DNA of 50,675 nt from a virus (Duplodnaviria > Caudoviricetes), in the IMG/VR virus record IMGVR_UViG_3300047510_001736, positions 1-50,675 of that record; one strand, given 5' to 3'. Below are positions 791 through 49,348 of this stretch, piece by piece. The translations under genes were made by a program, and so were the position numbers. The notes under the pieces were generated by a model that did no database searches, was not told the origin of the DNA, and saw nothing but the letters and a program-made list of their open reading frames with translations. Position 1 is the first letter of the stretch, and every line of letters begins with the position of its first letter.

Positions 791-806
791 TGCTAACGAT
801 ATGCCA
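791..806 (-). promoter_or_regulatory. Sigma-54-type -24/-12 promoter for the capsid operon
   Basis: Minus strand TGGCATATCGTTAGCA (GG-N10-GC), intergenic. Preceded by AAGTC, as is the 6568-6583 promoter. Confidence 0.75.
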
Positions 807-825
807 GACTTTATTTTGTGAAGAT

Positions 826-1965
826 TTAATCGTCTCCGAACATTTCTTTATCACCGAGCGGAATATCATCGCCGCCAGTGGATTTACCCATTGGGCCAGC
901 GCTCGGCGGAGGAATCACGCCGGGCTTTTGCTTCTGCTGGGCGATATAAGCTTGGAACGCTTTAGCCATGCGCAGATTGCCGACCATTGCATAGTGTGCA
1001 ATCTTTCGAGCATCCTCTGCGGTCACGCTATCGGGGATGATCTTTGCGAGCAGCGGCGCATAAGACTGCTCTTCGGTCGTGAGCTTGTCGGGATCAATGT
1101 CCTTGAAGATCTTCTTGAAGCTGCTATTGATAAACTCACGCTCTTCGGCGAGCTTGGTCTTGTACTTGTCGGGGAATGTCTTAAAGCCGTTGAAAGACTT
1201 CTCGTAGTTTGACTGGGCGCGGCGATAAGCTTCAGTGAGTTCAAGCTCTAGCGCGGGATCATGCGTGCCGTTCTTCGCGGGCTGAATAGTCTTAAAGACA
1301 GGATTGCCTTCAGCATCATAACCTTCGAGAAGCTCAAAGGGCTTATTCTGCTTGAGCGCCACGAGAGCATTCTTCAGCGATCCAACTTCAAAGCGGTCTG
1401 TTTCGAGTTCGGCTTGGATCTGATTGTAACCCGTATCGAGTTTGTAAGCTTCCGGATGCTGAGTGTAATGCTTGGGGATTTCAGCTTGCTTTTTGAATGC
1501 TTCATACCACTTCGGCAACTGATCACGAACGGCATTGTAAGTCTGATTGGGAAGCTTCTTCAGAACGGAGACGACTTCATCGGGCAGATTGCTGTAGTCG
1601 CGACCTTGTTGATTTTGCGTCTGCGTAGTCTCAGTCTTCTGTGGCGCTTCAGACTTTTCTTCAGTCTTCGGCTTCGTCGACTTGATCGCCTCAGTGACAT
1701 CTTTGGGAAGATCGAATGGATCTGCTTCGTCACTTGGGGTTTCTTCTTTAGGAGACTCAACAGACTGCTCAGCGGGCTTATCCTCCGCTTTAGTCAGAAG
1801 CTTGTTGACATCGAATGACGTAGAATCTTCGCCATCAAAGTCAAACGAGATGTTTTCGTTCGGCAAAGACGTTGGCGCCGCTGGAGGCAATGGCGCCGAG
1901 GAAGGTCCGGTGTTGATGTTGAACGGCGTTGAGGCCGCCGGTGTTGGGGATGCTGCGGAGTCCAT
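826..1965 (-). CDS. Probable capsid scaffolding protein
   Basis: 379 aa; acidic, low-complexity N-terminus then a helical region; lies between portal and capsid. Confidence 0.6.
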   Translation of the reverse strand: MDSAASPTPAASTPFNINTGPSSAPLPPAAPTSLPNENISFDFDGEDSTSFDVNKLLTKAEDKPAEQSVESPKEETPSDEADPFDLPKDVTEAIKSTKPKTEEKSEAPQKTETTQTQNQQGRDYSNLPDEVVSVLKKLPNQTYNAVRDQLPKWYEAFKKQAEIPKHYTQHPEAYKLDTGYNQIQAELETDRFEVGSLKNALVALKQNKPFELLEGYDAEGNPVFKTIQPAKNGTHDPALELELTEAYRRAQSNYEKSFNGFKTFPDKYKTKLAEEREFINSSFKKIFKDIDPDKLTTEEQSYAPLLAKIIPDSVTAEDARKIAHYAMVGNLRMAKAFQAYIAQQKQKPGVIPPPSAGPMGKSTGGDDIPLGDKEMFGDD

Positions 1966-1970
1966 AGGAG

Positions 1971-2174
1971 TTATTGCGTGAGTTCTGCGATGTGTTGTTT
2001 AATGTCTTCGAACGTCTTTGCTCGAAGGAGATCTTCTTGCGTGGGCATAGAAGAACAGGCTTTGTGCATTGCTGCTTTAAGCCTTTTGTTTTGTTCTTCC
2101 GAAAGCCAAGCGAGGAAATGTAAAGTCTCCGCGCTATTCGCCCACAGAATCCAGTTAGCCTTGCTGGGTTGCAT
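1971..2174 (-). CDS. Small hypothetical protein (head module)
   Basis: 67-aa ORF filling the portal-scaffold gap on the operon strand. Confidence 0.6.
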   Translation of the reverse strand: MQPSKANWILWANSAETLHFLAWLSEEQNKRLKAAMHKACSSMPTQEDLLRAKTFEDIKQHIAELTQ

Positions 2175-3975
2175 TAGGTTGCTGAGCTAGGCGCTGCTGA
2201 ACGGCTTGCTGAAGCTGCTGGAAGGATTGAGCCTCTTGTTGGAATTCTGGTTTCAACTGACCCGTCGCTTCGTCTGTGACGACAGCCTGAAGAGCTTGAC
2301 CGAGACCTTGGATAAGCTGCGTGTCGTTGCCTTGGCTGAGAATCTTAGACCACTGATCATACTTCTCGGGATAACGAAGACGCACATATTCCTTCATCAT
2401 CTCTTGGCCAATGGGCGTACCTTGGAACATCGGCAGATCTTGCTGAATGTTTGTGATGCGCTGTTGCTTCTCGACGAAGTCAATGTCGCCCGCGGGCTTA
2501 ACTTCATACTGCTTGCTGAGGATTGCTTCTTTCTCAGCGGGATCAGAAACCTCAATCAAGAATTTGATCGAGCCTTTCTTTGCCTCACTCTGCACGATCG
2601 GCCACGTCATTGTGAGCACATCGCGTAAGAAGATGCTGAACACCAGCGCAGACGTGCCGGTGAGCATACCTTGCTGCTGCTGGGCAGCTTCGATCTCCGT
2701 CGCGGTCTTACGAGAATCTTTGCGGTTATTGACAGCCCACGCGACCTGATTGTTCTCCATCGCGTTCTGCTGCGTAATGGCTTCGATCCCCTTGAAGATC
2801 ATTGGGTCAGGCCACGGCGCAGTAAAGGCTCGCATTGGAGTCTTCCAGATCGCGTTGTTCTTGATCTTATACTGCAACTGCGCGGGCGCCATGCCGTCGA
2901 GATTCGCACCATCAGGCGACCACATCGTATTCGCGGCTTGAGTACAACCGTTGACCGCCGCAGTCATCAAGGTCGTGGCGGCTTCTTGCTTATGATAATC
3001 TTCAACCGCTCGGCCCTCAGCCTCATCGTGTTTGCGGTTTTCTTTGATCTCAGCGCGCTTGACTGCGATCGGATAATAGGTCAGATGAACAGGCTTATTG
3101 ACATAAGTCGGCTCGGTCGTCATTGCCATCGGGTCGATGTTGACCTCAGGCACAGACTCCTCAATGCCATTGCTAAACGGCAAAGGCTGCTTGAGCCACT
3201 GCTTGCTGTCTTTGTAATACCAGCCGCGATAGACGAAACCGTTGACCTTTACGAACGTCTCATAGATCACCAAGTCGTCGCCTATGACGTTGACTTCCTC
3301 GGACAGCAATCGTTTGGTGATGGCGTTGTATGCATCACTGTTCTTGTCAAAGTTCTCAAACGAGTCCCAGTGATAGAAGCTCACGGCCGTGATGACGTGC
3401 TTGATCAAGACCGCGGGGCTATCTTGCAGAGACTTCAGACGACGATCGTACACGATCTCGTTAAAGGGAATCGTCTCCATCGACACGCCGCCGAGCTTGG
3501 TGTTGTCGGCCTTGACCATCATGTAGCCGATGCCGTTAAGCTCTGCGCCATCGAGCACTTCAATGTACGGAATCTCCCAGCCGGGATATTGAAGCACGCG
3601 TGTGAACTCTTGATCGAGATAAGAGTTGTCGCCGGGGACAAACGTCGCCATCCGTGGGGATTGCTTTAGATAAGAAAGCAACGGAGGCAACGCTTGATTG
3701 ATGTTTTGGTTGATAAGACGAACACCAATAAAAGTCTGATTCTCCTGAAGAAGACCCGCCGAACGCATCTGTTCAACGTCAGCTTTATTCGAGCGCAGAC
3801 GCCGATTGGTGACCGTGGTCGCCTCTACAGCACCGTGCGACGAAATGTATTGGCTAATTAACCCGTTGGCAGTATTGAGGTCCAGCAGGTTCTTTTGCCC
3901 AGCTTGCGCTAAGATAGCGGATGTTTCTTGATTGTTTGCAGGTTCTTCGTTCATGAGATTATTCCTCTTCGTCAA
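2155..3975 (-). CDS. Portal protein
   Basis: ~600 aa downstream of terminase; RKTATEI motif of podovirus/P22-like portals; Gln-rich C-terminus. Start may be the second Met. Confidence 0.8.
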   Translation of the reverse strand: MTKRNNLMNEEPANNQETSAILAQAGQKNLLDLNTANGLISQYISSHGAVEATTVTNRRLRSNKADVEQMRSAGLLQENQTFIGVRLINQNINQALPPLLSYLKQSPRMATFVPGDNSYLDQEFTRVLQYPGWEIPYIEVLDGAELNGIGYMMVKADNTKLGGVSMETIPFNEIVYDRRLKSLQDSPAVLIKHVITAVSFYHWDSFENFDKNSDAYNAITKRLLSEEVNVIGDDLVIYETFVKVNGFVYRGWYYKDSKQWLKQPLPFSNGIEESVPEVNIDPMAMTTEPTYVNKPVHLTYYPIAVKRAEIKENRKHDEAEGRAVEDYHKQEAATTLMTAAVNGCTQAANTMWSPDGANLDGMAPAQLQYKIKNNAIWKTPMRAFTAPWPDPMIFKGIEAITQQNAMENNQVAWAVNNRKDSRKTATEIEAAQQQQGMLTGTSALVFSIFLRDVLTMTWPIVQSEAKKGSIKFLIEVSDPAEKEAILSKQYEVKPAGDIDFVEKQQRITNIQQDLPMFQGTPIGQEMMKEYVRLRYPEKYDQWSKILSQGNDTQLIQGLGQALQAVVTDEATGQLKPEFQQEAQSFQQLQQAVQQRLAQQPNATQQG

Positions 3976-4261
3976 ACATGGCGTCTTCCTTCAGAGGCAC
4001 GTCGCCTTGAGGAGCCATGGTCTTGCGCTTCGAAAGAGCTTTAGGGACGGTAGCATTACTATCGCCGCCTTTGGCTTCGTTGTTCGGGCCTTTGCCGTTG
4101 GTGTATTCGTCAGAGTCGGAATCGTTAGGTTCTTCTTGATCCTCACCGATTTCGATCTCGACTTTAGGGCCGCCTTTAGCCATTTTCTTCTGCGCGTAGG
4201 CCAACTCTTCAGGGCTAAGGGACGAGAAAAACTCGTCGATGTAATCCATTGATCCGTCCAT
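3959..4261 (-). CDS. Small acidic hypothetical protein
   Basis: 100-aa ORF tightly packed between terminase and portal. Confidence 0.6.
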   Translation of the reverse strand: MDGSMDYIDEFFSSLSPEELAYAQKKMAKGGPKVEIEIGEDQEEPNDSDSDEYTNGKGPNNEAKGGDSNATVPKALSKRKTMAPQGDVPLKEDAMFDEEE

Positions 4262-6554: not shown

Positions 6555-6567
6555 AATTAAAGCGAAA

Positions 6568-6583
6568 AGCTTTTAGAGTGCCA
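6568..6583 (-). promoter_or_regulatory. Sigma-54-type promoter for the packaging/late arm
   Basis: Minus strand TGGCACTCTAAAAGCT (GG-N10-GC); predicted +1 ~6557, ATG at 6554. Confidence 0.8.
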
Positions 6584-6689
6584 GACTTAAATATACTTTT
6601 TGGGTCTAAAAAATCTATAAAATCTGTGAGCGGTCATGTTCGGACATCGACGCGATTTTTCGGGTCTTTCTGCTGGGCGGCTTGTAGTA

Positions 6690-7170
6690 GTACGGTGTGA
6701 TTTATCATTAACGTTAGTGATTTATTAGTGTTAAATCCTTATTGTATTTGAATATGAGTGTATGATCATATGATTGTGTGAGATTATTTAATAACAAAAG
6801 GATTTGACTGTGCTAAACGGTGTGATTTATCAGTGTTAAATCCTTTGTTCGTCAGATAAATATGCTTATTGATAAATTGGGATTTTGGGCTTGTGGTTGT
6901 TTTAATGCAAATAACGTATTTTTGGAAGGTAGGAAGGTAAAATATGATAAATACAATAATAAAAAATAAACGACCTAAGCCAAAAGTCGAATAAGCATAT
7001 TTTATTGTACAACAAAGATTCCTAAATAAGAGTCTTATTGATAAATAACTTTTAAGGATACCTCTTACCTAAGAGCTTTAACGATAAAGTGGCTAAAAAA
7101 AGCCAAAAAGTGGCTCTTTTTTGTCACTTAGGCTTTTTTTGTTTGTAAATAGGCTCTTTTTGACCAGTAT
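6690..7170. repeat. AT-rich non-coding region with direct and inverted repeats (candidate origin or genome-end region)
   Basis: ACGGTGTGATTTATCA at 6692-6707 and 6817-6832. GTGATTTATYAGTGTTAAATCCTT at 6717-6740 and 6822-6845. CTTATTGATAAAT occurs twice. No ORF; lies between the divergent arms. Confidence 0.7.
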
Positions 7171-7239
7171 GGGCAGAAAGTGGTGAGTCACGGAGTGAGG
7201 CGTTAGCGTTAACGTGTGCCATTTTGGCGCGTTTTGGCT

Positions 7240-7255
7240 TGGCATTGGGGTTGCT
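7240..7255 (+). promoter_or_regulatory. Canonical sigma-54 promoter opening the early arm
   Basis: TGGCATTGGGGTTGCT matches the TGGCA-N6-TTGC consensus; predicted +1 ~7266, ATG at 7267. Confidence 0.8.
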
Positions 7256-7835: not shown

Positions 7836-8661
7836 GAGACAGAACCGGGGTTTAGTGTTAAACACTGATTTAGCACTAAGCCCAATTCTGTCTCTCGCCT
7901 CTTTTAACATAAAGTCGCCAAGTCTGTCTTGTTCTGTCTTGTGTGTGTTTGCTGATAGGCTTCTCACTCTTTGACAGACCACAAGACAGGCTCTCTCAGA
8001 CGGGAGTCTGGCGCACTGGTTGTCTTGCTTGCTTGTTTTCGTTACAAGTACCAAAGCAAGACAGACCGATCCGGCCCTCTAAAGGCATACGGAGAACGTG
8101 TATTCACTTCTCCCATTTAACTTTAGACAGAACCGGTCCGCTTCCCAATGTCGCCTTTCCTAGGTTATTCAACGTGAGCCGTTACGTTACGGACCAAAGC
8201 GACAAGCAAGCACTTGTTTGATAATGTCGCAGGCACGACACTAGGCACACAAGCGTCCCTTGTGGATTGATAATTGCAAACCCTTTGGGGATTTACTCCC
8301 TCAAAGAGCGCGACCAAATTGCCACAAGCGGACGCATAGTGTCTGGGATTTGACGTATCCTCGACAGTCTTCCTTTATTCCCTTATTCTACACTCTGCCC
8401 GTTATCCTACACCGTCAAATCCTAGACACTATGCGTTCAAATCCTACTGCAGCGTTTGACAAGTCACAAGCAAGTCAAACGCATCTATACGCTTCACAAG
8501 CTTCACGCAAACTCAACAAGCTTGCCATAAAACATACAAGCAAGCGACAAGCAAAACACGACAAGTCATCTTGTCACAAAGCCCGCGCTTGGCGTTGTAA
8601 AGGTACTTTTGCCGTGTCTTCCGCGCAAGTCAAACTCAGCAAGATAGATTGGATCTAAGTT

Positions 8662-8760
8662 ATGAAACAACATAAGAAAGACGAACTAACACTAGCAATA
8701 CTCGGCGCATTGATTCTTTTCATTGCGCTTTACTTTTTCGTTAAAGGAATCCTTTATTAG
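8662..8760 (+). CDS. Small single-TM peptide (32 aa)
   Basis: MKQHKKDELTLAILGALILFIALYFFVKGILY; basic N-terminus plus hydrophobic helix; below the ORF-track cutoff. Confidence 0.55.
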   Translation: MKQHKKDELTLAILGALILFIALYFFVKGILY

Positions 8761-8796
8761 AAGCCCAACCGCGGCCACGCGGTTGCCGTAGAGGCG

Positions 8797-8828
8797 AAGC
8801 TTGTAGTGAATAACTACAAGCTTTTTTT
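8797..8828 (+). terminator. Rho-independent terminator
   Basis: AAGCTTGTAG-loop-CTACAAGCTT followed by a T run. Confidence 0.75.
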
Positions 8829-8851
8829 GCGTTAAAATAAATAAACAAAAT

Positions 8852-9169
8852 ATGAAAGTCCAACTAACACACGAAGAAGCCATTATTCTTCTCACAATTC
8901 ATCTCGCGGATAAGACGGATAGGCCCATTGAGCACGTTGAGATTATCGCTGAAAAGCCAGTGCGAGAAATCCACGCCGTGACGTACACAAGTGAGATGGT
9001 GCAAGAATTATGGGGCGATTTTATGGCGCCCACGAACGTAAGGCCAAATCTCGCGCCCGTTAAGATTAGCTTAATCAAGCTCTTCATGGGCTTGCATTAC
9101 AAGCTCACAGGCACGCAATGCGGCCTTGTGACGGCCAAGAACTTCGTTGAGAGCCACAAGACTTTTTGA
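8852..9169 (+). CDS. Protein with ribosomal L7/L12 C-terminal-like motif
   Basis: C-terminus KISLIK...LTGTQCGLVTAKNFVE resembles the bL12 CTD pattern KIxVIKxxRxxTGLGLKEAKxxVE. Confidence 0.55.
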   Translation: MKVQLTHEEAIILLTIHLADKTDRPIEHVEIIAEKPVREIHAVTYTSEMVQELWGDFMAPTNVRPNLAPVKISLIKLFMGLHYKLTGTQCGLVTAKNFVESHKTF

Positions 9170-9172
9170 TTT

Positions 9173-9394
9173 ATGAACTGTGAAGATTATCCATGCTGCG
9201 GCCACGAGCCGGGCGGCTGTCCTGTTACCGACGAAAACGGTGCAGAGCGTTTCCGTTGCGCCCGTTGCAGCGTTTTGATGCCTCCACAAGCCCGAAGCGC
9301 TGTTTGCGATCGTTGTCACAAGCGCTGGGCGTTTGAAGAATACAGCGACGAAATGCCTGATCGTTATTATGAAGACGGAAGACGAATCTTTTAA
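9173..9394 (+). CDS. Cys-rich putative zinc-binding protein
   Basis: CEDYPCCGH..C plus CxxC...CxxC. Confidence 0.65.
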   Translation: MNCEDYPCCGHEPGGCPVTDENGAERFRCARCSVLMPPQARSAVCDRCHKRWAFEEYSDEMPDRYYEDGRRIF

Positions 9395-9404
9395 TAAAAC
9401 TCCA

Positions 9405-9530
9405 ATGAACGAAGAACCACAAGACGAAAATCCCACGCTTGAAGATCTCCGCGCGGAGATTGGCCGTTATGACGACGAGCCTCTTGATGATGGTCCGGGA
9501 TGGGACTTAGGCCGGGAGGAAATGCTATGA
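9405..9530 (+). CDS. Very acidic small protein (41 aa)
   Basis: ATG at 9405 within ORF 9333..9530; 15 D/E versus 3 R. Confidence 0.55.
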   Translation: MNEEPQDENPTLEDLRAEIGRYDDEPLDDGPGWDLGREEML

Positions 9531-9661
9531 AAAAAAGATCACCAAGTCAAAAAATCTTTCACGCCGTTATTATGATTATTGTCATGCTCGGGGCTTGTTT
9601 CATTCTAGCTCTTAGCACTGTGGCATTTTTCATCAAAAACTTATTCACAAAAAAGAAATGA
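9527..9661 (+). CDS. Small single-TM protein (44 aa)
   Basis: MKKRSPSQKIFHAVIMIIVMLGACFILALSTVAFFIKNLFTKKK; ATGA overlaps on both sides. Confidence 0.65.
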   Translation: MKKRSPSQKIFHAVIMIIVMLGACFILALSTVAFFIKNLFTKKK

Positions 9662-9918
9662 CCAATAGATGTCTCCGTTGTCTCCAAATCATCGACACAG
9701 AGCGCAAGGCATTAGGCTTTGATAGGTGTATCAAATGCGCACCTCAATGGACGTACAAAGGCGCTTTGAACTTTGGCCACAAAACAGGCGGCTCAGTGCA
9801 GCCAATGCATCCTGATGCGTTCAAGGTGCATAAAAGAGTAACCCACAGATCTGCAAAGGGTACAAATGGCAAAGCATTTCAGCAAGGCACAACAAACATA
9901 ACCATTAAAGATGCATGA
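9658..9918 (+). CDS. DksA/TraR-type C4 zinc-finger protein
   Basis: CLRC-LQII-DTERKA-LGFDR-CIKC resembles CxxCxxxIxxxRxxAxxxxxxCxxC; no coiled-coil acidic tip. Confidence 0.55.
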   Translation: MTNRCLRCLQIIDTERKALGFDRCIKCAPQWTYKGALNFGHKTGGSVQPMHPDAFKVHKRVTHRSAKGTNGKAFQQGTTNITIKDA

Positions 9919-10088
9919 TCATCATAATCCCCTCACATATCAAAGGCTTTTACAGCTATTGTCTCGCGCCTGTATCGAATACGTTAGACATTCATGTCTA
10001 CATTCAACGTATCCTAAGTGACAACGTGCTCAGTGTAGACTTCAACCTAACCGCCGAAGAACTCGGTCAGATTCTCGGCGGTAACTAA
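9915..10088 (+). CDS. Small hypothetical protein (57 aa)
   Basis: MIIIIPSHIKGFYSYCLAP...GQILGGN; ATGA overlap with the upstream gene; followed by a terminator. Confidence 0.5.
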   Translation: MIIIIPSHIKGFYSYCLAPVSNTLDIHVYIQRILSDNVLSVDFNLTAEELGQILGGN

Positions 10089-10103
10089 TTCTCCATAAAG
10101 CAC

Positions 10104-10130
10104 AAGCCCTTTACGGAGGGCTTCTCTTTG
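10104..10130 (+). terminator. Probable rho-independent terminator
   Basis: AAGCCCT-TTACGG-AGGGCTT then CTCTTT. Confidence 0.6.
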
Positions 10131-10158
10131 TGGAGCTTTTTTACACCAAGATAAAACT

Positions 10159-10174
10159 TGGCATTCAAGAAGCT
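10159..10174 (+). promoter_or_regulatory. Sigma-54-type promoter (ARAAGCT class)
   Basis: AAAACT-TGGCATTCAAGAAGCT (GG-N10-GC); near copy of the 11063 promoter; follows a terminator. Confidence 0.8.
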
Positions 10175-10278
10175 CTATCGCTTTGCCGCCCGTTGACGGC
10201 GTGCGAAATGTAAGTGGTCGCGCGACCTCAAACATCCCAAACTCAAGTCAACAAGTTAGAAATAAAAACATAAACATC

Positions 10279-10923
10279 ATGAGCACCAAGAACCTCGAAC
10301 TCGTCGCCTCCTTTGCTGGATCTGTCTTCCAGTCTGATGCCGACGGCAATCCTCTGTTCGTCACCTCTGAGCGTCACGTCCGCAAGACTGCCAAGAGCGC
10401 AGAGCGCACTGTCTCCTTCCAGAAGCCCGTTCTGGCCGTGAGCGATCTGCAATACTACATCAAGCGCGGCGAAGCCTTGGCTGAGATCGCGACCGAGCAC
10501 GTCACGAAGGTGAAGAATGAAGATGGCTCTGTGACCGAGACCAAGCGCGTCTCTAATGCGCTGAGCGATCTCGTCGCCGAGCACCTGCTCGACATCAGTG
10601 AAGACGCTTCTGAGGCCTATCTCAGCAAGGGCAACACTCCGGACTACTTCGCCGCCTTCATCTACGGTGTCAGCGCCGATCGTGAGACTGAGAAGTCTGT
10701 CCTCAAGAAGATCGAGTCGATCCGAAGCGAGATCGGCTCGATCGTGTTCGCTCTGGCTGGCGAGTGGACCGAAGACACTGCTCGCTCGCTGGGCGTGAGC
10801 GACAAGGACGCTGCGATCGCCAAGCAGTCCAACCTCATCGCCTCGCTGGCTCAGCTTCTCGCCAAGGCCAACGAGCTCAGCGCCGCGAAGGCCAAGCGTG
10901 AAGCCAAGAAGGCGAAGGTCTAA
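10279..10923 (+). CDS. Hypothetical protein, probably highly expressed (214 aa)
   Basis: Likely start MSTKNLELVAS at 10279; capsid-like codon bias; own promoter and terminator; Ala/Lys-rich C-terminus. Confidence 0.8.
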   Translation: MSTKNLELVASFAGSVFQSDADGNPLFVTSERHVRKTAKSAERTVSFQKPVLAVSDLQYYIKRGEALAEIATEHVTKVKNEDGSVTETKRVSNALSDLVAEHLLDISEDASEAYLSKGNTPDYFAAFIYGVSADRETEKSVLKKIESIRSEIGSIVFALAGEWTEDTARSLGVSDKDAAIAKQSNLIASLAQLLAKANELSAAKAKREAKKAKV

Positions 10924-10971
10924 TAGTTTTACTTCCTCACGAAGTAATCTGCAATACAACTAAATCACAAG

Positions 10972-11010
10972 GAGCCTCTGTGGGAGCAATCTCACAGAGG
11001 CTTTTTCTTT
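10972..11010 (+). terminator. Rho-independent terminator
   Basis: AGCCTCTGTGGGA-GCAA-TCTCACAGAGGCT then TTTTCTTTT. Confidence 0.85.
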
Positions 11011-11062
11011 TAGGTCTTTTTCAAAGTGTTCCACATTTTGGCATTCAACAGATGCCAAAACT

Positions 11063-11078
11063 TGGCACACTAGAAGCT
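11063..11078 (+). promoter_or_regulatory. Sigma-54-type promoter of phage rpoN (ARAAGCT class)
   Basis: AAAACT-TGGCACACTAGAAGCT (GG-N10-GC), ending 34 nt before the rpoN ATG. Confidence 0.8.
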
Positions 11079-11112
11079 CCTTTGCATAGGCTAACAACCA
11101 CCACTAGCCAAC

Positions 11113-12402
11113 ATGAAGTTTTCTCTTAACGTACAACAGACGCAAAGTCTGATCCTCTCGCCGCAGTTGCAGCAGTCGTTAGCTCTACTGCAAGCTCCTC
11201 TCTGTGAACTCCATAACCTGATGGAGTCTTTCACGCAGGATAATCCTTGCGTTGAACTCCTCGATAGAGACACGCCCGAAGAAGAGATCTTGTTTCGCAA
11301 TGACAAAGCAGAACTTCCACAAGACATGCAGTGGACTAGTTCTTACAGCCTGCCCGCCCGAGAGGAATATCCGCTGGAGAATAATCCCTCACGCGATGAG
11401 ACACTCGAAGAGTATCTTCTGAGAGAGTTGACAATAGCGCAACACGACACGAGCATCATACATCTGCTCGACGAGAGGGGATTCTACACGGGCGATCTTG
11501 ATGCACTAAGCACACGGCAAAGAGATGCTCTGCGTTTCATAAGAACACTAGAACCACGCGGACTAGGCGCTTTGGGATTAGCAGACTGCTTGTGCTTGCA
11601 GCTAGATGAGAACTCACTAGCCTACAAAATCCTCCAACAAGACGAAGACCTCTTTACTCGAAGACAAATCCCCCTTCTCTCTAAGAAATATAACGAAACA
11701 TTCACAACCATAGAGAATCTTTACAAATCTCTAAGCAAACTAAACTACAATCCAGCCTCCGAATTCTCTTCTTCAACGCACACACCTAAAGACGCAGAGA
11801 TCTTTCTCGATAAAGATCTCAATATCACGATCCCGTCCGAGCGTCTTCCGATCTACAAGATCAATCAGACTTATCTCAACTATCTCGACAAGCTCTCCGC
11901 GGCGGACAGAGAATACATCCGAGATCGCGTGAAGCAAGGTAAGTTTCTGATTCGTTCAATCACTCAGCGCCAGTCGACTTTGTTTAGTGTCACAAAAGCG
12001 ATCGTTGAGTACCAACAAGACTTCTTCCGCAGCGGAAACATTAAAGATCTCAAGCCTCTCATCATGGCACAGATCGCCACCGTGTGTGAGATCCATGAGA
12101 CTACCGTGTCAAGAGCAGTGCATAACAAATACATCAGCACGCCGCACGGCACATACGAATTAAGATTCTTCTTCACCTCAGCCATTATCAACCACAATGA
12201 AAACACCATGCAGTCAAACCTAAGCATAAAGAATCAGATCGCAGAGATCATCTCGCGCGAGGACAAATCTCGCCCACTCAGCGACGAGGACATCGTAGTT
12301 CTTCTTAAGAATACAATCGCTCGCCGCACAATCGCAAAATACAGAGCCGAACTAGGCATTCAACCGTCTCACCTCCGTAAAGTCTATGCCTCCTCAAAAT
12401 GA
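11113..12402 (+). CDS. rpoN: RNA polymerase sigma-54 factor (phage-encoded RpoN)
   Basis: Region I QQTQSLILSPQLQQSLALLQAP; core-binding motifs LDERGFY and LEPRGLGA..LADCLCLQL; HTH LKPL..QIA..CEIHETTVSRAVHNKYISTPHG; PLSD; RpoN box ARRTIAKYR. Confidence 0.97.
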   Translation: MKFSLNVQQTQSLILSPQLQQSLALLQAPLCELHNLMESFTQDNPCVELLDRDTPEEEILFRNDKAELPQDMQWTSSYSLPAREEYPLENNPSRDETLEEYLLRELTIAQHDTSIIHLLDERGFYTGDLDALSTRQRDALRFIRTLEPRGLGALGLADCLCLQLDENSLAYKILQQDEDLFTRRQIPLLSKKYNETFTTIENLYKSLSKLNYNPASEFSSSTHTPKDAEIFLDKDLNITIPSERLPIYKINQTYLNYLDKLSAADREYIRDRVKQGKFLIRSITQRQSTLFSVTKAIVEYQQDFFRSGNIKDLKPLIMAQIATVCEIHETTVSRAVHNKYISTPHGTYELRFFFTSAIINHNENTMQSNLSIKNQIAEIISREDKSRPLSDEDIVVLLKNTIARRTIAKYRAELGIQPSHLRKVYASSK

Positions 12403-13120
12403 AAACGACCAAAAAGAAAACCAAATCACAAGCGAATCCCTCTGGGGATTGCTCTTTCCAGCCTGCTCTTGTCATGTCGATACAGAGCGCGGCCACTTCA
12501 TCCGCAGAACTGCAGGAAATAATCTTGCCCATGCGATTGTTGCTACAAATGAAACAGCGGACTGGGTCAAAGCTCACTGCGCGGGTGAGCATATCCATAT
12601 ACAGAGAATCGACGAAGATGGATTGTCCTATAGCGTCATATGGGACTCTACAGAATGGAACCTTTCGGATGAAAGAAGAAGAACACTTCGTGCAAACCAC
12701 CTTGCCTCTGACATATCCTTCCTCCACAAAAAAGCGGAAGAGCTGCGGATCGAAATGATCGCCGACGCCTTGTCGAAGGCGAAGCTCTTCACCAAACAGA
12801 AAGCATTCGAAGTCGCCGCCGCGATCACATCGCAGGGCGAAGAAGTTTATCTTAATAAATCAAGGCAGTTGAATGATGCCTTAAAAGGCGCGTTCAACAA
12901 TATCAACTGTTACTTTCCCATCGAAGAAGTTCTCCGTATTGTAGACACTCGCGGTCTGTTAGAAAAGATTAGTCCTGTAAATATTCAACAAGAAACTCAA
13001 CCACAACAAGATGAACAAAAACCTACAGAAGAAATGTCAGAAGGAAGCAGCACGCCTCAAAGCCAAGATGGACAAGGCTACTACCAAGAATGTAGTCTTA
13101 CGCCAACGGCTGGAGGATGA
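12386..13120 (+). CDS. Hypothetical protein
   Basis: 244-aa ORF covering the gap after rpoN; overlaps its neighbours at both ends. Confidence 0.6.
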   Translation: MPPQNENDQKENQITSESLWGLLFPACSCHVDTERGHFIRRTAGNNLAHAIVATNETADWVKAHCAGEHIHIQRIDEDGLSYSVIWDSTEWNLSDERRRTLRANHLASDISFLHKKAEELRIEMIADALSKAKLFTKQKAFEVAAAITSQGEEVYLNKSRQLNDALKGAFNNINCYFPIEEVLRIVDTRGLLEKISPVNIQQETQPQQDEQKPTEEMSEGSSTPQSQDGQGYYQECSLTPTAGG

Positions 13121-13316
13121 AATGCTTGCGGTGCAAAAGAAACTTACACCCCTGCTTAACAAGAGAGATGCTATCAACCGCTCATTCGCACACCTTGACA
13201 AACCAACCGCAGAGAGTATCGTCTTCGGCGAGTACATCTCTCTCATCTCCCGCACTCCACAAGCCTACGGTTTCAAGAACGCTGAGGAAGTGATCGCGAA
13301 GTTGATGGACCTATAA
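13011..13316 (+). CDS. Hypothetical basic coiled-coil protein
   Basis: 101 aa; ends 4 nt before the helicase ATG. Confidence 0.6.
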   Translation: MNKNLQKKCQKEAARLKAKMDKATTKNVVLRQRLEDEMLAVQKKLTPLLNKRDAINRSFAHLDKPTAESIVFGEYISLISRTPQAYGFKNAEEVIAKLMDL

Positions 13317-13320
13317 GACT

Positions 13321-15492
13321 ATGAACATATTCTCTACGCCAGCCGGAGTAAAGAAAGCCGCGCCAGCAGAAGCTACTTACACAAGCAAGGAAGATCGCCT
13401 TCAACAGACCGCTCTCACCACCGCGCGAGCGCAAGCGAAGAAGCTGACAGATCTCTACCGCAAGGAGCCTTATGAGTGGGACTTCTTACAGCGTGAGTTG
13501 AATCTCACCACCATTCCATCCATCAAGCTAGACTATGCAACCCTCTTAGGATTTCTACAGGGCTGGGTTAATCAAGCCCCTCTAAGGCAACAAAAGGAAG
13601 CTCTTCGCCTCGCAGAGGAAGCAGCCTTGCGGGAGAAAAGAACCTACAGCACCATCGACATCAAGCTCCCCAACGGCCTCGACTTCAAGCCGCAGCAGAA
13701 GAAAGCTATCGCGGCCTTGCTCGACGTGCTGTACAAAGACAACCTTAACGGCGCACTTGTCCCACTCGGCACCGGCAAAGGTAAGAGCTGGATCGCCGCC
13801 GGTCTCGCACTATGGCTACAGAAACATGACCCGCAAAAGTTCTGTAACTTTCTCGGCTTGTTTCCGCCTATCCTAATCATCACCAAGAAGTCTGTCGTCC
13901 TTGACTTCCGAGACACACTGAAGAAGCTGGGCCTTGAAAGCGTCGGCCTCGCTGTCGACGTGTGGTCATACAACGAAGTCTTCTCCACGAAGAACAAGAA
14001 CTTCTTCAAATCCGAAACCACGGAGATCTTCGGTCAAGCTACAAACGTGATACGCTTCAACCTGCCCGAGCAAGCGGCGCCCAAGCTTATCATCCTCGAC
14101 GAGTGTCAGGAGATTAAGAAAGAGAAGTCTAAGAGAACTAAATATCTCGAAGCCTTCTTGCAATTCCCATCTATCAAGTGGGTCTTCACCTCAGCCACGC
14201 CCGCAGTCACGGTGTGGGACACAATGTTCATGACTCTCGCCATGCGCTTGCCTTACGGAGCAAGACCTCTCACGAGAGAGACATTCCCAGAGTTCGCTCG
14301 CACTCTCACTCTCGGCGCAGATCCCCGCTCGGCGAATGCAGCCGCACTCGAACGCTGGGCCGGTGCGCTTGGCGACAGACTAGTCAAGCCGCCGGGCGAT
14401 CCTCAAAAGGTGAAGGCGCTCAACAAAGTCAAGCTCTTTGAGATCACTGATCCAGCGAATCAGAACATGCTCAAGAATGCGATGAAGAATTATCTTGAGG
14501 CTATCGAGCGCACTGGTCGTTCGATAGATCCACAAGGTCAAGTCATGGTCGCCTTCATGGTCATGGCCCGAGCGGCCGAGCTTGCTACTGTAGACACATG
14601 GGTCGCAGACGCGATCGCCGCTCATCAACAAGGCTATGCGCCAGTCATTGCAATCCGCTTCACCGAGACTCTCAAGGAGCTAGTCATGAAGCTCTGTGAT
14701 AGTGAATACTTCCGCAGTAAGAATCTCAACAAACAAAAGATCTCCCTCATCTGGGGCGGCAACAAAGAGATCAAGCCCGAGGAACTTCTCCCAGAAACCC
14801 GCGCGGCAGAGATCGCTGCGAAGATGGGCATGTGGATTCTTGACAATCCGCACGAGGCAAGAAAGCCTAAAGCAGATGACATTGGGATAACCAAAGAGGA
14901 GTTCCGAGCCTTCCACAAAGGCATCAAGTACACAAGCGAGAGAATCTTCCGAGAGATGACAAAGGATGCATTCGCCGCGCGCAATGAGAAGCTTAGAGAG
15001 ATGAAGCTTCACAATCAGAACCAGAAAGAAAGACATGAGAACGTGCAAGCGTTCCTCAATGGAGAGACTGAGTTCTGTATCTATACCCTCTCAAGCGGTG
15101 GTACGGGTATCTCACTGGATCATCGCTATCAACACACACGACCACGCAAAGTCGCATCGACTATGACCTATTGGGCTGAGGAGTTTGCTCAAGCTCTCGG
15201 TCGTTGTGTCCGTATCACAACCCTCACCGACACACTGCAAGAGATCTATGTTCCCGAGGGCACAATCCTCAGTGATCACATGGCTCCTAAGCTTGCGAGA
15301 AAACTCAAATCCGTAGACGCAATCGGCTCATCGAACGTCGATCTGGCTGGCGAACTTGAGAAGGCACTCAAGGATAAGGCGGCGGTCGTGAGACTTACCG
15401 CCGAAGATCTCACCGCCTCTGAATCCTCCGGCGTCGTTGAGGTTGAGGAGGAAGAAGATGATGAGGAGGAACTTGTAGAGTCTGCCAGTTAA
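13321..15492 (+). CDS. Superfamily 2 helicase
   Basis: Q motif KPQQ, motif I GTGKGKS, II ILDECQ, III TSATP, V SGGTGISL, VI QALGRCVR; acidic tail. Confidence 0.9.
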   Translation: MNIFSTPAGVKKAAPAEATYTSKEDRLQQTALTTARAQAKKLTDLYRKEPYEWDFLQRELNLTTIPSIKLDYATLLGFLQGWVNQAPLRQQKEALRLAEEAALREKRTYSTIDIKLPNGLDFKPQQKKAIAALLDVLYKDNLNGALVPLGTGKGKSWIAAGLALWLQKHDPQKFCNFLGLFPPILIITKKSVVLDFRDTLKKLGLESVGLAVDVWSYNEVFSTKNKNFFKSETTEIFGQATNVIRFNLPEQAAPKLIILDECQEIKKEKSKRTKYLEAFLQFPSIKWVFTSATPAVTVWDTMFMTLAMRLPYGARPLTRETFPEFARTLTLGADPRSANAAALERWAGALGDRLVKPPGDPQKVKALNKVKLFEITDPANQNMLKNAMKNYLEAIERTGRSIDPQGQVMVAFMVMARAAELATVDTWVADAIAAHQQGYAPVIAIRFTETLKELVMKLCDSEYFRSKNLNKQKISLIWGGNKEIKPEELLPETRAAEIAAKMGMWILDNPHEARKPKADDIGITKEEFRAFHKGIKYTSERIFREMTKDAFAARNEKLREMKLHNQNQKERHENVQAFLNGETEFCIYTLSSGGTGISLDHRYQHTRPRKVASTMTYWAEEFAQALGRCVRITTLTDTLQEIYVPEGTILSDHMAPKLARKLKSVDAIGSSNVDLAGELEKALKDKAAVVRLTAEDLTASESSGVVEVEEEEDDEEELVESAS

Positions 15493-15540
15493 TTTAGTCA
15501 TGCCTAAATCATATCACCTCACAACAACAAGTCAACAAAA

Positions 15541-15765
15541 ATGTCCGACAAAGATCCTTTCCGCGTGCGGAATCCCGGATATCTCAGCATGTATTTGTTG
15601 GACTATCTGGTGGGCCAAGCTCTCACTGGGCTGTTGGCTAATCCAAACAACAAGGAAACCTTACAGCGTAATGCAGAGATCGCATTCGAACAGGCTGAAG
15701 CTGTGATCGAGTTGCGTGAACAAAGACTGGAGAAACAAAAACAAAAACAAAATGAACGCGTATGA
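15541..15765 (+). CDS. Small hypothetical phage protein
   Basis: 74 aa; LLDYLVGQALTGLLANP pattern typical of a common small phage protein family. Confidence 0.7.
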   Translation: MSDKDPFRVRNPGYLSMYLLDYLVGQALTGLLANPNNKETLQRNAEIAFEQAEAVIELREQRLEKQKQKQNERV

Positions 15766-16030
15766 ATGGAAACCAACAGGCGGCCCGAAGTGCCCGGGCT
15801 GTGGTGGAGAAGAGATAATAAATCAATACAAGCATAAGCAATGGCGCTGCGGATCTCACTGGTGTCATGAAGAGACAAAAGACTTCAAGCAGTCAACAGT
15901 CTGCCAGCGTTATGAACTAGATACCTTACACGCAAAGATAAAACAACTATCAAACACATTCGAATCATATCAGAAAGAAATCAAACGACAAGAAGCATTC
16001 AAATATACACCACCTGCAGGAAAGGATTAA
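15752..16030 (+). CDS. Zinc-ribbon plus coiled-coil protein
   Basis: CPGCGG...WRCGS..C; likely start MNAYEWK. Confidence 0.6.
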   Translation: MNAYEWKPTGGPKCPGCGGEEIINQYKHKQWRCGSHWCHEETKDFKQSTVCQRYELDTLHAKIKQLSNTFESYQKEIKRQEAFKYTPPAGKD

Positions 16031-16502: not shown

Positions 16503-16687
16503 AAGGTAAGAGAGTAAGAAGTCTGGAAGCGTTAATCTTCCTTGCCCAACTAAAGCGCAGCGTCCTCATGCCACCGCGCATGAGCCAACGTCCTTGGCCC
16601 GCTGCATTTGTAATCAACATGAATCTTCTACACGTCTATCATCTACTGCGAGAAGGTATCTACATCTACGAACCTAAAACAAAATGA
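16499..16687 (+). CDS. Small hypothetical protein
   Basis: 62 aa; ATGA overlap with the activator gene. Confidence 0.55.
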   Translation: MKGKRVRSLEALIFLAQLKRSVLMPPRMSQRPWPAAFVINMNLLHVYHLLREGIYIYEPKTK

Positions 16688-20224: not shown

Positions 20225-20305
20225 GAGCTACTCAGCGCGTACTGCAAGCTGTTCTTGCGGCAGGGTTTTTGACGGTTTCCCCTGGGACGGCGCGCTGGGT
20301 AGCTC
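20225..20305 (+). ncRNA. Candidate structured RNA element (three-way junction) followed by a U-rich tract
   Basis: 15-bp closing stem 20225-20239/20291-20305 with inner stems 20242-20248/20254-20260 and 20261-20265/20280-20284; G-U pairs fit the + strand. Confidence 0.5.
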
Positions 20306-44839: not shown

Positions 44840-45805
44840 TTAAAGATTGAAAGCTTTTTTAACCGACACAGTCATTTGATCGAGTGTGAAGTTACGCGCT
44901 TTTATAAAAGCCCCGGTGGCTTTCTCCATGACTTCTTGCTTATTATCATAAGCGTAACGCATAGCGTATGCAAGATCGTCAACATTTAGCCTGCCTATCT
45001 CGCCTGTGTAGTCATAAATGTTTCCGGGCGAAGGAATCATTTGAGCGGGAACCATCCACGAACAAGTGCTATCAAGAAATTCAAGCGGCCCTCCGATCGC
45101 GGGGCAGATCACAGGACGCCCATGCGCAATCGCGTCATGATGCGGATATCCCCAGCCCTCAGCGCCACAAGCGGAGACAAAAACATGATTTTGCCGATGT
45201 AAATAATTGACATTTGTCTGATATTCGCGAATTACTTTAACGCGGCTGTCAAATGTGATCAATTGTTTACAGCCCGGACCTTGTTTCATGATTAAATGCA
45301 CGTCCGCTTCGTGGGGAAATGCTCTCGTAAACGCGTCTATGATATCTTGTGCACGTTTACGCTGCCAAAACATCATGTCTTGATAGATTGTGTAGAAAGA
45401 GAATACATCAAAAGACGAAAGCGGCAGAGGTTCGTATTCAGACGCTAATGGGATAATAGCCGCAGAGAATCCTGCACGCTCAAAAACCTCTTGCGTGAAT
45501 TTACACGTTACTACAAGCTTACGATTGGGTTGTTTTGCAAGATATTCACAGTCTTGCGCGCGGAGTTTTGTAGTTTCCCAAAAAGTCAACAGATAGTCTG
45601 ATGAGATACTTGACGACGGGCCATCAATAGCCGCAAAGAAATGTCCGTCGCGAGATTGTGTAAGATCTGGTTTATGTCCGAGTCGCCTAAGACATTCAGC
45701 AAGGCTAAATGTTACACGACCAAACGAATTAATTGGGTTAAGAGAGCCTGTATGTATTCTCATGGATGCTCTGGGAGAGAGCGTAAAAAATGCCAAAGCT
45801 TTCAC
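44840..45805 (-). CDS. GT-B glycosyltransferase (GT4-like)
   Basis: FWETT, RKRAQDIIDAF, FVSACGAEGWGYPHHDAIAHGRPVI. Confidence 0.85.
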   Translation of the reverse strand: MKALAFFTLSPRASMRIHTGSLNPINSFGRVTFSLAECLRRLGHKPDLTQSRDGHFFAAIDGPSSSISSDYLLTFWETTKLRAQDCEYLAKQPNRKLVVTCKFTQEVFERAGFSAAIIPLASEYEPLPLSSFDVFSFYTIYQDMMFWQRKRAQDIIDAFTRAFPHEADVHLIMKQGPGCKQLITFDSRVKVIREYQTNVNYLHRQNHVFVSACGAEGWGYPHHDAIAHGRPVICPAIGGPLEFLDSTCSWMVPAQMIPSPGNIYDYTGEIGRLNVDDLAYAMRYAYDNKQEVMEKATGAFIKARNFTLDQMTVSVKKAFNL

Positions 45806-45826
45806 TTTGGCATTCTCGTTTATTAT

Positions 45827-47982: not shown

Positions 47983-48230
47983 TGGATGGTGGGGCTAGGG
48001 GTTTGAGCGGCGGCGTAGGCTGCGACAGCGGCAGGAGTCCAGACAGCGTTGGCAATCGCGACAACCTGCTCGGGCTGACCCGTAAGGTCTGAGCCGGGAG
48101 CGAGACAATAGCGGCGGAATGTGGAGGCTTTGACAACCTCGCCATCGACGATCTGGTTCGCCATACGAACCTGCAACGTGGTGTTGGGAAGAACCTCGCA
48201 GAGCGAGAAGATGGTGCGTTCGGTGAGCAT
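47979..48230 (-). CDS. Tail-fibre-associated small protein (paralog A)
   Basis: Start MLTERT; same C-terminal motif as paralog B. Confidence 0.7.
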   Translation of the reverse strand: MLTERTIFSLCEVLPNTTLQVRMANQIVDGEVVKASTFRRYCLAPGSDLTGQPEQVVAIANAVWTPAAVAAYAAAQTPSPTIQ

Positions 48231-48234
48231 AAGA

Positions 48235-49320
48235 TTAGACGTGGTAGGTAACCTCAAAGAAAAAGCTCTTCGATCCAGTTGTCAGTTCTGAAGTCGCAGG
48301 GAAAAACAAATATGCGTTGTTAGATTCAACGTCAGAAAACCCTACAGCAAGAATGTTGTTTTCAAAACAAGAGCCAGAAACAACAGCGGCATTGTTGAAC
48401 GGCAACCCTGTGAGAGTGACATATGTCAAAGTGTTCGCTACAGTGACTGATGCGGTAACATTTCCAGACAGTGTTACAATTCTTCCGATTTTAGTGTATC
48501 TTGCGGCAACAACAGAAACGCTGGTGCAATTAACTGCGCTGCTTCCGGTCGGCGTCCAAGTCCCCTCCTCGTAATCATCCAGCGTGTTCGCATCGGACGA
48601 AGCGACTTGAGTGGCGGGGAAGGTGATGCCGCTCTTGAGCTGCAAGCAACCGCCAGTACCAGCAGGCGTAACCCCCACGCCCAGCCCCGTGGAGTTCAAA
48701 GTCATGGCGGTGCCAGCGACTCCGCCGACTTCAGACCAAGTGCAAACGCCATCAGCGGCGATGCGGTAATGCTCAAGTCCTCCAGAAGAACCACGAGTAA
48801 CGAACACCAAGTCGTTAGTCGGAGTAGCTTGATTGGTGAACTGACAATTAACAGAACCGCCGAACAATCCATTAGCATTGTAGAACTCAACAGAACCAAA
48901 GTTGTTGTTCGTGCTGCTGGTATTTTGAATCCGCAAACTGGCACCACCAACGGGAGGAGCTGTCAGTGCGGTCGATGTACTCGATTTCGACAGATGGACA
49001 AACTGAGCGGGACTCGCGGTTCCAATTCCAACCCGATCATTCGCCGAATCCACCTTCAGGGTGCTGGTATCCACCGTCAGATCGCCGGTGATGGTGGCGG
49101 CTCCGACAGTAAGAAGATCTGTAGTCTTGTTATACGTCAGGCCAGCGTCGCCCCGCAAAGTACCATTGTCATTAAAAATGATCTGAGTGTTTGCACTATT
49201 GCCCGTCGTAGACGAGCCGATGTTAGTCTCCAGTACGGAAACTTGTTGTATGATCCGCTCAATGGCTTTCCTCAGAAGCCATGCGGAATCGCCTTTCGGC
49301 AATGTTGAGAGATTAGACAT
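48235..49320 (-). CDS. Tail fibre protein
   Basis: VDSANDRVGIGTASP, NTLDDYEEGTWTP, YTKIGRIV, GLPF motifs of aquatic phage fibres. Confidence 0.85.
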   Translation of the reverse strand: MSNLSTLPKGDSAWLLRKAIERIIQQVSVLETNIGSSTTGNSANTQIIFNDNGTLRGDAGLTYNKTTDLLTVGAATITGDLTVDTSTLKVDSANDRVGIGTASPAQFVHLSKSSTSTALTAPPVGGASLRIQNTSSTNNNFGSVEFYNANGLFGGSVNCQFTNQATPTNDLVFVTRGSSGGLEHYRIAADGVCTWSEVGGVAGTAMTLNSTGLGVGVTPAGTGGCLQLKSGITFPATQVASSDANTLDDYEEGTWTPTGSSAVNCTSVSVVAARYTKIGRIVTLSGNVTASVTVANTLTYVTLTGLPFNNAAVVSGSCFENNILAVGFSDVESNNAYLFFPATSELTTGSKSFFFEVTYHV

Positions 49321-49332
49321 ATCCTTGAATTT

Positions 49333-49348
49333 TAGCTGTCAGGTTGCC
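49333..49348 (-). promoter_or_regulatory. Sigma-54-type promoter for the tail fibre unit
   Basis: Minus strand TGGCAACCTGACAGCT (GG-N10-GC) downstream of a terminator; predicted +1 ~49322, ATG at 49320. Confidence 0.7.

Follow-up and report, generated by a model that had tools for sequence, protein, structure and literature searches.

Does a phage that encodes a sigma-54 factor of its own also carry a promoter family to match, and how far does that family depart from the bacterial canon? The question is raised by the window analysed here, a stretch of 50,675 bp that constitutes one complete virus record (a phage genome; Caudoviricetes, IMG/VR record IMGVR_UViG_3300047510_001736), in which an earlier note had listed eight -24/-12 promoter-like sites with an unusual -12 half and had ascribed them to a phage RpoN of shifted specificity. 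Phages are known to redirect the host's RNA polymerase by means of sigma-70-family factors, or else to bring polymerases of their own; a phage programme built on sigma-54 and an ATPase would, if true, be a different strategy from the sigma-70-type takeover, because of its tight off-states and ATP-gated switch. On balance, the best explanation of the sites is that they are sigma-54-type promoters of a transcription system brought by the phage, with a relaxed, A-preferring -12 half.

Geometry of the promoter-like sites

All eight 16-mers were present in the window, the one placed at 49348 lying one base further on, at 49349 (Table 1). GG and GC were separated by exactly 10 nt in 8/8 sites, a spacing also found at 45780-45795 and in orthologues of the sites, and each of the eight was oriented toward the next downstream gene. 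Three lay just after terminator hairpins, and site 22237 covered the last 11 nt of an open reading frame (ORF; 21987-22247). The description of the other seven as intergenic held with a reservation for 7240, which falls within a long GTG-started ORF call, although the likely start is the ATG at 7267. The -24 half followed the extended YTGGCAC(G) form, with T preceding GG at a frequency of 0.93 and C following it at 0.94, then A (0.61) or C (0.37).

With the predicted +1 set at 12 nt after the C of GC, start codons fell at +4 (6554), +2 (7267), +2 (27159), +4 (49320) and +7 (45763), so that five promoters would yield leaderless or near-leaderless mRNAs, the ATG falling 1-6 nt past the predicted start; at the remaining four sites the predicted leader measured 24 or 39 nt in two cases and about 94 or 140 nt in the other two. 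Similarly short promoter-to-ATG distances were found in relatives (ATG at +9 for the 27132 orthologue in the complete relatives G001 and G002), and because this distance is fixed, it lends independent support to promoter function.

Table 1. Coordinates of predicted promoters, regulatory genes and the convergence terminator in the window (bEBP, bacterial enhancer-binding protein; HTH, helix-turn-helix)
Feature	Coordinates	Strand	Sequence and context
Predicted promoter	11063-11078	+	TGGCACACTAGAAGCT; heads rpoN-to-activator operon; predicted +1 at about 11089, 24-nt leader; after terminator 10969-11006
Predicted promoter	10159-10174	+	TGGCATTCAAGAAGCT; ATG 10279 follows a leader of about 94 nt; after terminator 10104-10135
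Predicted promoter (late)	6568-6583	-	TGGCACTCTAAAAGCT; heads long leftward packaging/structural block; ATG 6554 is 3 nt past predicted +1
Predicted promoter, canonical -12 half	7240-7255	+	TGGCATTGGGGTTGCT; ATG 7267 is 1 nt past predicted +1
Predicted class B promoter	22237-22252	+	TGGCCCAATAAAAGCT then CCCTCC; before DNA polymerase/ligase module; 39-nt A-rich leader
Predicted class B promoter	27132-27147	+	CGGCCCAAGAAAAGCT then CCCTCC; before primase module; ATG 27159 is 1 nt past predicted +1
Predicted promoter	791-806	-	TGGCATATCGTTAGCA; leader of about 140 nt before gene 636->1 + 50675->49950
Predicted promoter	49334-49349	-	TGGCAACCTGACAGCT; before tail-fibre-like gene; ATG 49320 is 3 nt past predicted +1; after terminator 49417-49394
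Probable extra promoter	45780-45795	-	TGGCATTTTTTACGCT; absent from earlier list; before glycosyltransferase gene; ATG 45763 is 6 nt past predicted +1
Doubtful class-B-like site	21110-21125	+	TGGCCCACGATAAGCT; inside PD-(D/E)XK nuclease gene
Phage rpoN	11113-12402	+	full-length sigma-54, 429 aa: region I, core-binding domain, HTH, RpoN box ARRTIAKYR
Phage bEBP-type AAA+ activator	16684-17523	+	279 aa; Walker A GPSGTGKE, GAFTGA loop, Walker B
Bidirectional terminator	29338-29369	both	13-bp stem, T runs on both strands; where rightward and leftward blocks converge

Conservation in related phages

Related IMG/VR contigs numbered 15 at first (RpoN 75-98% identical), and a later alignment-based scan gave 29 loci, of which 21 fell in this clade; three complete relatives (G001-G003) aligned collinearly with the window, their DNA being 70-89% identical to it. 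All eight listed sites were kept at orthologous places, GG and GCT being invariant while spacers and flanks varied. The 11063 site was present in 11/11 relatives (as AAGCT or AGGCT), as was the 10159 site (spacer changed, AAGCT or GAGCT). GG-N10-GCT was retained at the 6583 site in 8/8 relatives, with A at -14 in four and T in four, and the 22237 site was kept as GGCCCA-N4-AAGCT-(C/T)CC(T/C)CC in 8/8 despite different upstream flanks. The 27132 site (GGCCCAAGAAAAGCT) was identical in 3/3 relatives, the 16-mer of the 806 site was identical in 4/4 with a variable upstream flank, and TGGCAA-N6-CAGCT marked the 49349 site in 3/3 with a changed spacer. Site 7240 read TTGCT in 3/3 alignable relatives (L002, L008 and L012), its region not being alignable in G001-G003. 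In five relatives GGC-N7-AAGCT occurred 6-8 times per genome, versus 0-2 times for the pattern read backwards.

The site at 45795, which aligned with a canonical-looking TTGGCC-N6-TTGCT at the equivalent place in G001 and G003 (none was alignable in G002), is probably a ninth promoter. The doubtful site at 21110 lies in coding sequence, with GG lost in G002 and the -24 half altered in G001. Judged by orthologue conservation and placement in these sequences, the sites appear to be a genuine family of -24/-12 promoters that has been conserved. The clade comprises about 21 IMG/VR contigs, and all 120 protein clusters listed for it (metagenomes) were at least 72% identical; since the clade is common in metagenomes, its biology is not a one-off.

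Placement and motif frequency

Comparison with a shuffled background, which the earlier note had proposed, gave a divided outcome. The AAGCT subset was enriched (GGC-N7-AAGCT, 7 found against 2.28 expected, a number reached in 1/100 shuffles), whereas the looser patterns were not: 35 against 28.7 for GGC-N9-GCT (reached by 11/100 shuffles), 18 against 15.4 for TGGC-N9-GCW (29/100) and 12 against 8.25 for YGGC-N7-WWGCW (7/60). In the placement test, the space between genes, widened by 12 nt at either end, made up 8.5% of the genome; 6/18 TGGC-N9-GCW sites were intergenic and co-oriented under a strict ORF map (P = 0.003 for location, 7e-5 with orientation), and 5/7 of the GGC-N7-AAGCT subset were intergenic (P = 8e-5). 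The case rests on placement and conservation, not on motif frequency.

A position weight matrix (PWM) derived from the relatives alone placed the eight sites and 45796(-) among the 11 best matches in the window, the remaining two being 21109(+) and 18998(-), and gave 13 window matches of at least 12 bits compared with a mean of 3.0 over 30 shuffles; 45780-45795 scored 15.2 and 21110-21125 scored 17.8. The match at 18998(-) was rejected in spite of its high score, being antisense and not conserved, and 30472(-), a coding site at which AAGCT is not kept, was discarded as well. When dyads in intergenic DNA were counted without bias, A/T runs drowned out any signal, and a genome-wide count of retained GGC-N9-GC sites was not discriminating, because coding sites are often conserved too.

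It is highly improbable that the motif is no promoter at all and represents either the site of another phage DNA-binding protein or chance. The missing enrichment of the loose motif would fit such a reading, as would the TGCCA/TGGCA palindromes of 11039-11068 and 45789-45814, which extend into the -24 half and could be operators; the exact spacing, the co-orientation with genes, the terminators upstream and the fixed distance to ATGs all speak against it, as do the conservation of the sites despite variable spacers, the presence of sigma-54 and an activator in the same genome, and the lack of conservation of 18998(-), the sole strong antisense match.

Phage sigma-54 and its activator

The phage does encode RpoN, as had been stated, and the protein is a full sigma-54 (Table 1). 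Its Pfam matches were all above cut-offs (Sigma54_AID 6.6e-11, Sigma54_CBD 4.1e-21, Sigma54_DBD 3.2e-49), residues 1-423 aligned end to end with E. coli and Klebsiella sigma-54 chains, and equivalents of E378, R383, K388 and Y389 were present, the reference for its RpoN box being ARRTVAKYR. The closest RpoN representative outside the clade (P0122) was 44% identical and was not found in viral contigs; against PHROG, RpoN had no match at 1e-5. The phage genome contains a gene of the sigma-54 family, not sigma-70, together with a matching promoter family before operons, and we infer that the former reads the latter.

An activator gene, unmentioned in the earlier note, is present too (Table 1). 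It matched Sigma54_activat at 3.7e-49, its PDB matches (NtrC1, ZraR, FleQ and PspF) covered AAA+ domains alone, and its sole PHROG match was an unnamed PHROG. The protein has a 62-aa N-terminus of no assigned role and ends about 15 residues past the AAA+ lid, with no Pfam HTH match at E<=0.001 in its C-terminal part. In the typical three-domain bEBP, as outlined in excerpts of PMC4987338, a C-terminal HTH selects the enhancer. Because the phage protein stops after the AAA+ lid and has no HTH, it was grouped with bEBPs lacking a DNA-binding domain, and without an enhancer-selecting HTH it should therefore act from solution on any bound holoenzyme. No + strand terminator-like site was found between 11113 and 17523, so that rpoN and the activator gene probably form one operon behind the 11063 site.

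A distant phage lineage, G006 (L054/L061-L063; 52,003 bp, terminal repeats), was seen to carry an RpoN at 2730-4193 that is 33% identical, a 285-aa Sigma54_activat ORF at 51127-51975 and, just after its rpoN, TGGCACGTAGGCAGCT with A at -14. Promoters of G006 were not resolved, its relatives all being 95% identical. The RpoN and short activator of G006 may hint that the strategy arose or spread more than once.

Full-text literature searches, in which supplements were not covered, returned no paper on phage-encoded sigma-54, and a phage sigma-factor survey (PMC9429907) was without the terms searched (sigma-54, sigma-70 or RpoN). A phage collection held no close homologue, RpoN matches reaching at most 37% and activator matches at most 47%, in bacterial-looking records, and megablast of 9000-16000 against that collection gave no match.

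Probably relaxed rather than switched specificity of the -12 half

As quoted in PMC2725144, 186 promoters share the consensus mrNrYTGGCACG-4bp-TTGCWNNw; for E. coli sites mapped by chromatin immunoprecipitation and sequencing, part of PMC4591121 gives GG and T-G-C (motif positions 3, 4, 14, 15 and 16) as the rarely deviating bases, and the sigma-54 HTH is described, in passages of PMC5505868 and PMC10786286, as contacting DNA around -14. Five of the window sites read A(A/G)AAGCT, as had been claimed. Among the nine likely window promoters, -14 was A in seven, T in one (7240) and C in one (45795), and in the relatives (group-weighted, nine promoter groups) it was A at 0.67, T at 0.28, G at 0.06 and C at 0, with A at 0.47 and T at 0.35 at -15 and T at 0.89 at -11. 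Of the canonical TTGCW, GC and the W at -11 were thus retained and T at -14 was not. The element was rightly called non-canonical: A at -14 departs from the TTGCW consensus, and the departure is real because E. coli sigma-54 rarely tolerates a base other than T there.

The earlier note went further and took the phage factor to have shifted its -12 specificity. In its strict form, with a -12 preference switched to ARAAGCT and host and phage promoter sets mutually unreadable (orthogonal), this is unlikely. The prevalence of A at -14 (seven of nine in the window, 0.67 in relatives) agrees with a switch, all the more as T-G-C deviates so rarely in E. coli according to the same part of PMC4591121; identity between the phage RpoN clade and other representatives also does not exceed 44%, and the clade has a residue of its own, C or H, at the E. 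coli T386 equivalent in the recognition helix. Phages with an identical HTH and RpoN box nevertheless carry different -12 halves at one orthologous late promoter, namely AAGCT in the window, ATGCT in L002, GTGCT in L005 and L006, and TTGCT in L008, which contradicts a strict shift, and TTGCT stands at 7240 and in the G001 and G003 orthologues of 45795. In the recognition helix, HETTVSRAV(C/H)NKY, all residues except the C/H position were common among 141 bacterial representatives; that position is variable in bacteria as well, and whether it holds C or H bears no relation to the base at -14. It would moreover be hard to explain how rpoN is first expressed if its AAGCT promoter could not be read by host sigma-54.

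Specificity is therefore better described as relaxed than as switched, both because sigma-54 factors with the same DNA-binding residues occur alongside A, T or G at -14 of one late promoter and because the recognition helix is ordinary: the phage sigma-54 probably accepts A or T at -15/-14, with A preferred. Its RpoN box is canonical, in keeping with the canonical -24 half. Orthogonality remains putative and is in part contradicted by these observations; in full it cannot hold if host sigma-54 must read the 11063 promoter to start the loop. A at -14 might also bar host sigma-54, which would provide useful insulation if the E. coli rule holds for the host.

At the other extreme, the sites could be ordinary sigma-54 promoters read equally by host and phage, in which case neutral drift, or else a preference in the spacer, would account for their A-rich -16 to -14 stretch, and the phage copy of rpoN would only raise the sigma-54 supply or substitute for a host factor. 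Such an account, which we regard as quite improbable, is compatible with the canonical -24 half and RpoN box, with the A/T toggling at -14 among close relatives, and with the dominance of -24 recognition in closed-complex formation described in part of PMC5095919. Across the nine promoter groups, however, -14 was never C and rarely G, with A more than twice as frequent as T, which makes pure drift unlikely, and T at -14 is near-invariant in the E. coli data excerpted from PMC4591121.

Under the relaxed-specificity explanation, the phage sigma-54 would bind host core RNA polymerase, and the holoenzyme would dock on TTGGC(A/C)Y-N5-WWGCT, with the RpoN box at -24 and the HTH at -12. The phage AAA+ activator, with GAFTGA and without a DNA-binding domain, would then open closed complexes from solution, so that a promoter-specific enhancer would not be needed. 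About nine such promoters would head nearly every operon on both strands, and since one of them heads the operon holding rpoN and the activator gene, positive feedback would be expected. The -12 half would be a dialect of the canonical element, with GC and T(-11) kept and A or T at -15/-14 where the canon needs T. If true, this would make sigma-54, activator and promoters available as a natural set in which the -12 half is variant; with that set one could ask which sigma-54 residues read -15/-14, and it would be a possible part for orthogonal expression.

Promoter sub-classes and a broader proposal

Two sub-classes were discerned. The first, TTGGCAY-N5-RRGCT-(C/T)T(A/T)T(C/T)GC(T/A)(T/A)T, is found at 10159, 11063 and 6583, and the second, (T/C)GGCCCA-N4-AAGCT-CCCTCC, at 22237 and 27132, before replication modules. 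Shared flanks had been proposed for pairs of sites and do exist: AAAACT (10159/11063) was largely conserved, but AAGTC (806/6583) was not conserved across relatives. Any temporal meaning of the sub-classes is conjecture.

A wider proposal, possible though doubtful, is that the phage carries a portable kit of sigma-54, enhancer-free activator and promoter dialect, with one-way insulation, leaderless mRNAs, two timed sub-classes and repeated origin or spread. A(-14) would keep host sigma-54 off the phage promoters while the phage sigma-54 reads both A and T, the sub-classes TTGGCAY...GCT-TATCGCTTT and GGCCCA...AAGCT-CCCTCC would time replication versus structural genes, and leaderless mRNAs would be fired straight from the promoters.

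First expression and points against the promoter reading

Several observations weigh against the sites being promoters of a phage-borne sigma-54 system. The only promoter seen for the rpoN/activator operon is itself sigma-54-type and stands behind a strong terminator, which leaves first expression unexplained, and no convincing host-type early promoter was found by a sigma-70 scan, by a Bacteroidota-type pattern or in the block 6826-7001. Genome-wide the loose motif is not over-represented, single PWM scores of up to 18.2 arise in shuffles, and the PWM test is partly circular, the sites of the window itself having served to define its groups. No site of this kind accompanies genes 7943-10088, the 7240 site was confirmed in three relatives only, and the gene map was built with simple ORF rules. 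A promoter-like element at 20289 has a GG-GC spacing of 11 nt, not 10; it belongs to a region (20242-20304) in which a terminator hairpin (20242-20260) is followed by the conserved GGCGCGCTGGGTAGCT ahead of the nuclease gene, and at the equivalent place G001 has a correctly spaced TTGGCTTGGGGTTAGCC. Finally, RNA run X1, from a freshwater metagenome, was rejected as a sign of transcription, since it contained 9% of sampled words and gave no start or strand information; its matches were 55 assembled contigs of relatives, mostly 88-99% alike.

E. coli-type sigma-70-like sites were not enriched in the window (17 against 16.0, 15 against 14.8 and 15 against 12.9 expected), so that no competing promoter type emerged, and the Bacteroidota-type promoter pattern TTTG-N17-21-TAnnTTTG had 0 matches in the window against 0.7 expected. 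A sigma-70-like TTGACA-16-TATCGT was noted at 13195-13222, within coding sequence and upstream of the helicase; TTGACA was kept in 9/10 sequences (window included), coding constraint being inseparable here from promoter function. That this element could feed the activator gene is speculative.

A scan of genome contigs yielded one 4.4-kb contig (L026) with 79% identity, binned with a Phycisphaerales metagenome-assembled genome, the other seven being at most 30% identical. This is a weak hint to Phycisphaerales as a host lead.

Control regions and leader structures

The divergent control region 6692-6845 contains direct repeats, ACGGTGTGATTTATCA twice and GTGATTTAT(T/C)AGTGTTAAATCCTT twice, and next to them lies a block (6826-7001) conserved in several relatives, which was tried as an early promoter and did not resolve into one. 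Candidate roles for repeats and block are those of an origin, of operators or of the early promoter that is otherwise missing.

Upstream of the late promoter (6584-6700, - strand), blocks were kept in all relatives: AAGACCCGAA at about -105, ATGTYCGAACAYG (a palindrome) at -75 and CAGATTTTATAGATTTTTTAG at -55 to -35. They resemble an enhancer and bend site, though the phage activator is without a DNA-binding domain. The palindrome TGTYCGAACA, considered as a common element, was not shared with other promoters.

At the rpoN promoter, a palindrome (11039-11068; TTGGCAT-N7-ATGCCAA-N3-TTGGCA, with TGCCA/TGGCA overlapping or abutting the -24 half) was conserved in most relatives, and a TGCCA/TGGCA palindrome with 10-bp arms (45789-45814) likewise overlaps or abuts the -24 half of the 45795 site. 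The one at rpoN may be an operator for a regulator.

The leader behind the 806 promoter (636-790, - strand) contains a hairpin, GAATCTCCCAGAGAGATTC, which is replaced by GAAGCCTTTAACAGGCTTC in G002 and L002; since both arms changed in these two, the stem was kept by compensatory changes. No Rfam family was matched, the leader hairpin included.

Genome layout

The leftward gene starting at 636 runs to 1 and has an in-frame continuation from 50675 to 49950 (636 + 726 = 1362 nt), and related genomes were contiguous across the end/start junction of the window, from which the record was concluded to be circularly permuted. A rightward block (about 7267-29330) comprises rpoN, helicase, activator, nuclease, DNA polymerase, ligase, primase and a Tad2-like gene, and a leftward block (6554->1 + 50675->29383) comprises tail-fibre-like, beta-helix, glycosyltransferase and large virion-type proteins; the two diverge from a 660-bp AT-rich region (6555-7215).

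The family A DNA polymerase is apparently split between ORFs 23286-24716 (exonuclease and the start of the polymerase profile) and 26114-27118 (profile positions 229-380), between which lie one gene for a ligase and one for a ferredoxin-like protein (phrog_3704). The Tad2-like (anti-Thoeris) gene lies at 29037-29330, and 29383-34833 encodes a polyvalent protein of 1816 aa that includes an ADP-ribosyltransferase domain (ART-PolyVal). No tRNA genes were present in the window. A Shine-Dalgarno-like core preceded just 4/65 ORF starts, the regions 5' of start codons being A-rich and G-poor, which hints at a host with Shine-Dalgarno-independent initiation.

Comparison with known systems

T4 gp55 is a phage sigma-70-family factor that redirects the host polymerase. 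Excerpts on SPO1 (PMC13401047) and phiEco32/7-11 (PMC8948821) describe further factors of this family and function. Like these, the phage sigma-54 would take over the host core polymerase and read phage promoters before middle and late operons; it differs in belonging to another sigma family and in needing an ATP-driven activator, which is encoded in the same phage.

FlgR and CtcC are bEBPs that work without a DNA-binding domain. Unconventional activators are the subject of a title cited in PMC3162934, 'Look, no hands! Unconventional transcriptional activators'. With bEBPs that lack the domain, and with the AAA+ fragments of PspF in the PDB, the phage activator shares a GAFTGA-bearing AAA+ domain and the absence of a C-terminal HTH, which makes activation from solution plausible; unlike them it is phage-borne, has the 62-aa N-terminus, and its activity is predicted.

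Sigma-54 has been engineered into orthogonal variants (R456H/Y/L) for which the -24 element is rewired, as described in part of PMC12096077; these share the idea of an activator-gated sigma-54/promoter pair insulated from the native one. They alter the RpoN box and the -24 element, whereas in the phage these two are canonical and it is the -12 half that varies, orthogonality being putative there. In Rhodobacter sphaeroides (RpoN1/RpoN2) and Bradyrhizobium japonicum, RpoN paralogues have promoter variants and activators of their own (PMC3162934, in excerpt); there, too, a second sigma-54 in the same cell goes together with a -12 region that differs slightly in sequence. These paralogues are the nearest precedents, along with the engineered variants and the phage sigma-70-family factors. 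The difference lies at a single position in those bacteria, -11 or -12, and in the phage at -15/-14, where it is not absolute and the sigma factor is virus-borne.

With the canonical sigma-54 promoters excerpted from PMC2725144 the phage sites share GG and GC 10 nt apart, a -24 half TTGGCA(C/T), T at -11, a location upstream of operons and the need for a GAFTGA activator. They differ in that -15/-14 is mostly AA rather than TT, that sigma factor and activator are phage genes, that some sites are followed by a conserved -10 to -1 block (TATCGCTTT or CCCTCC), and that several start codons lie at or next to the predicted transcription start.

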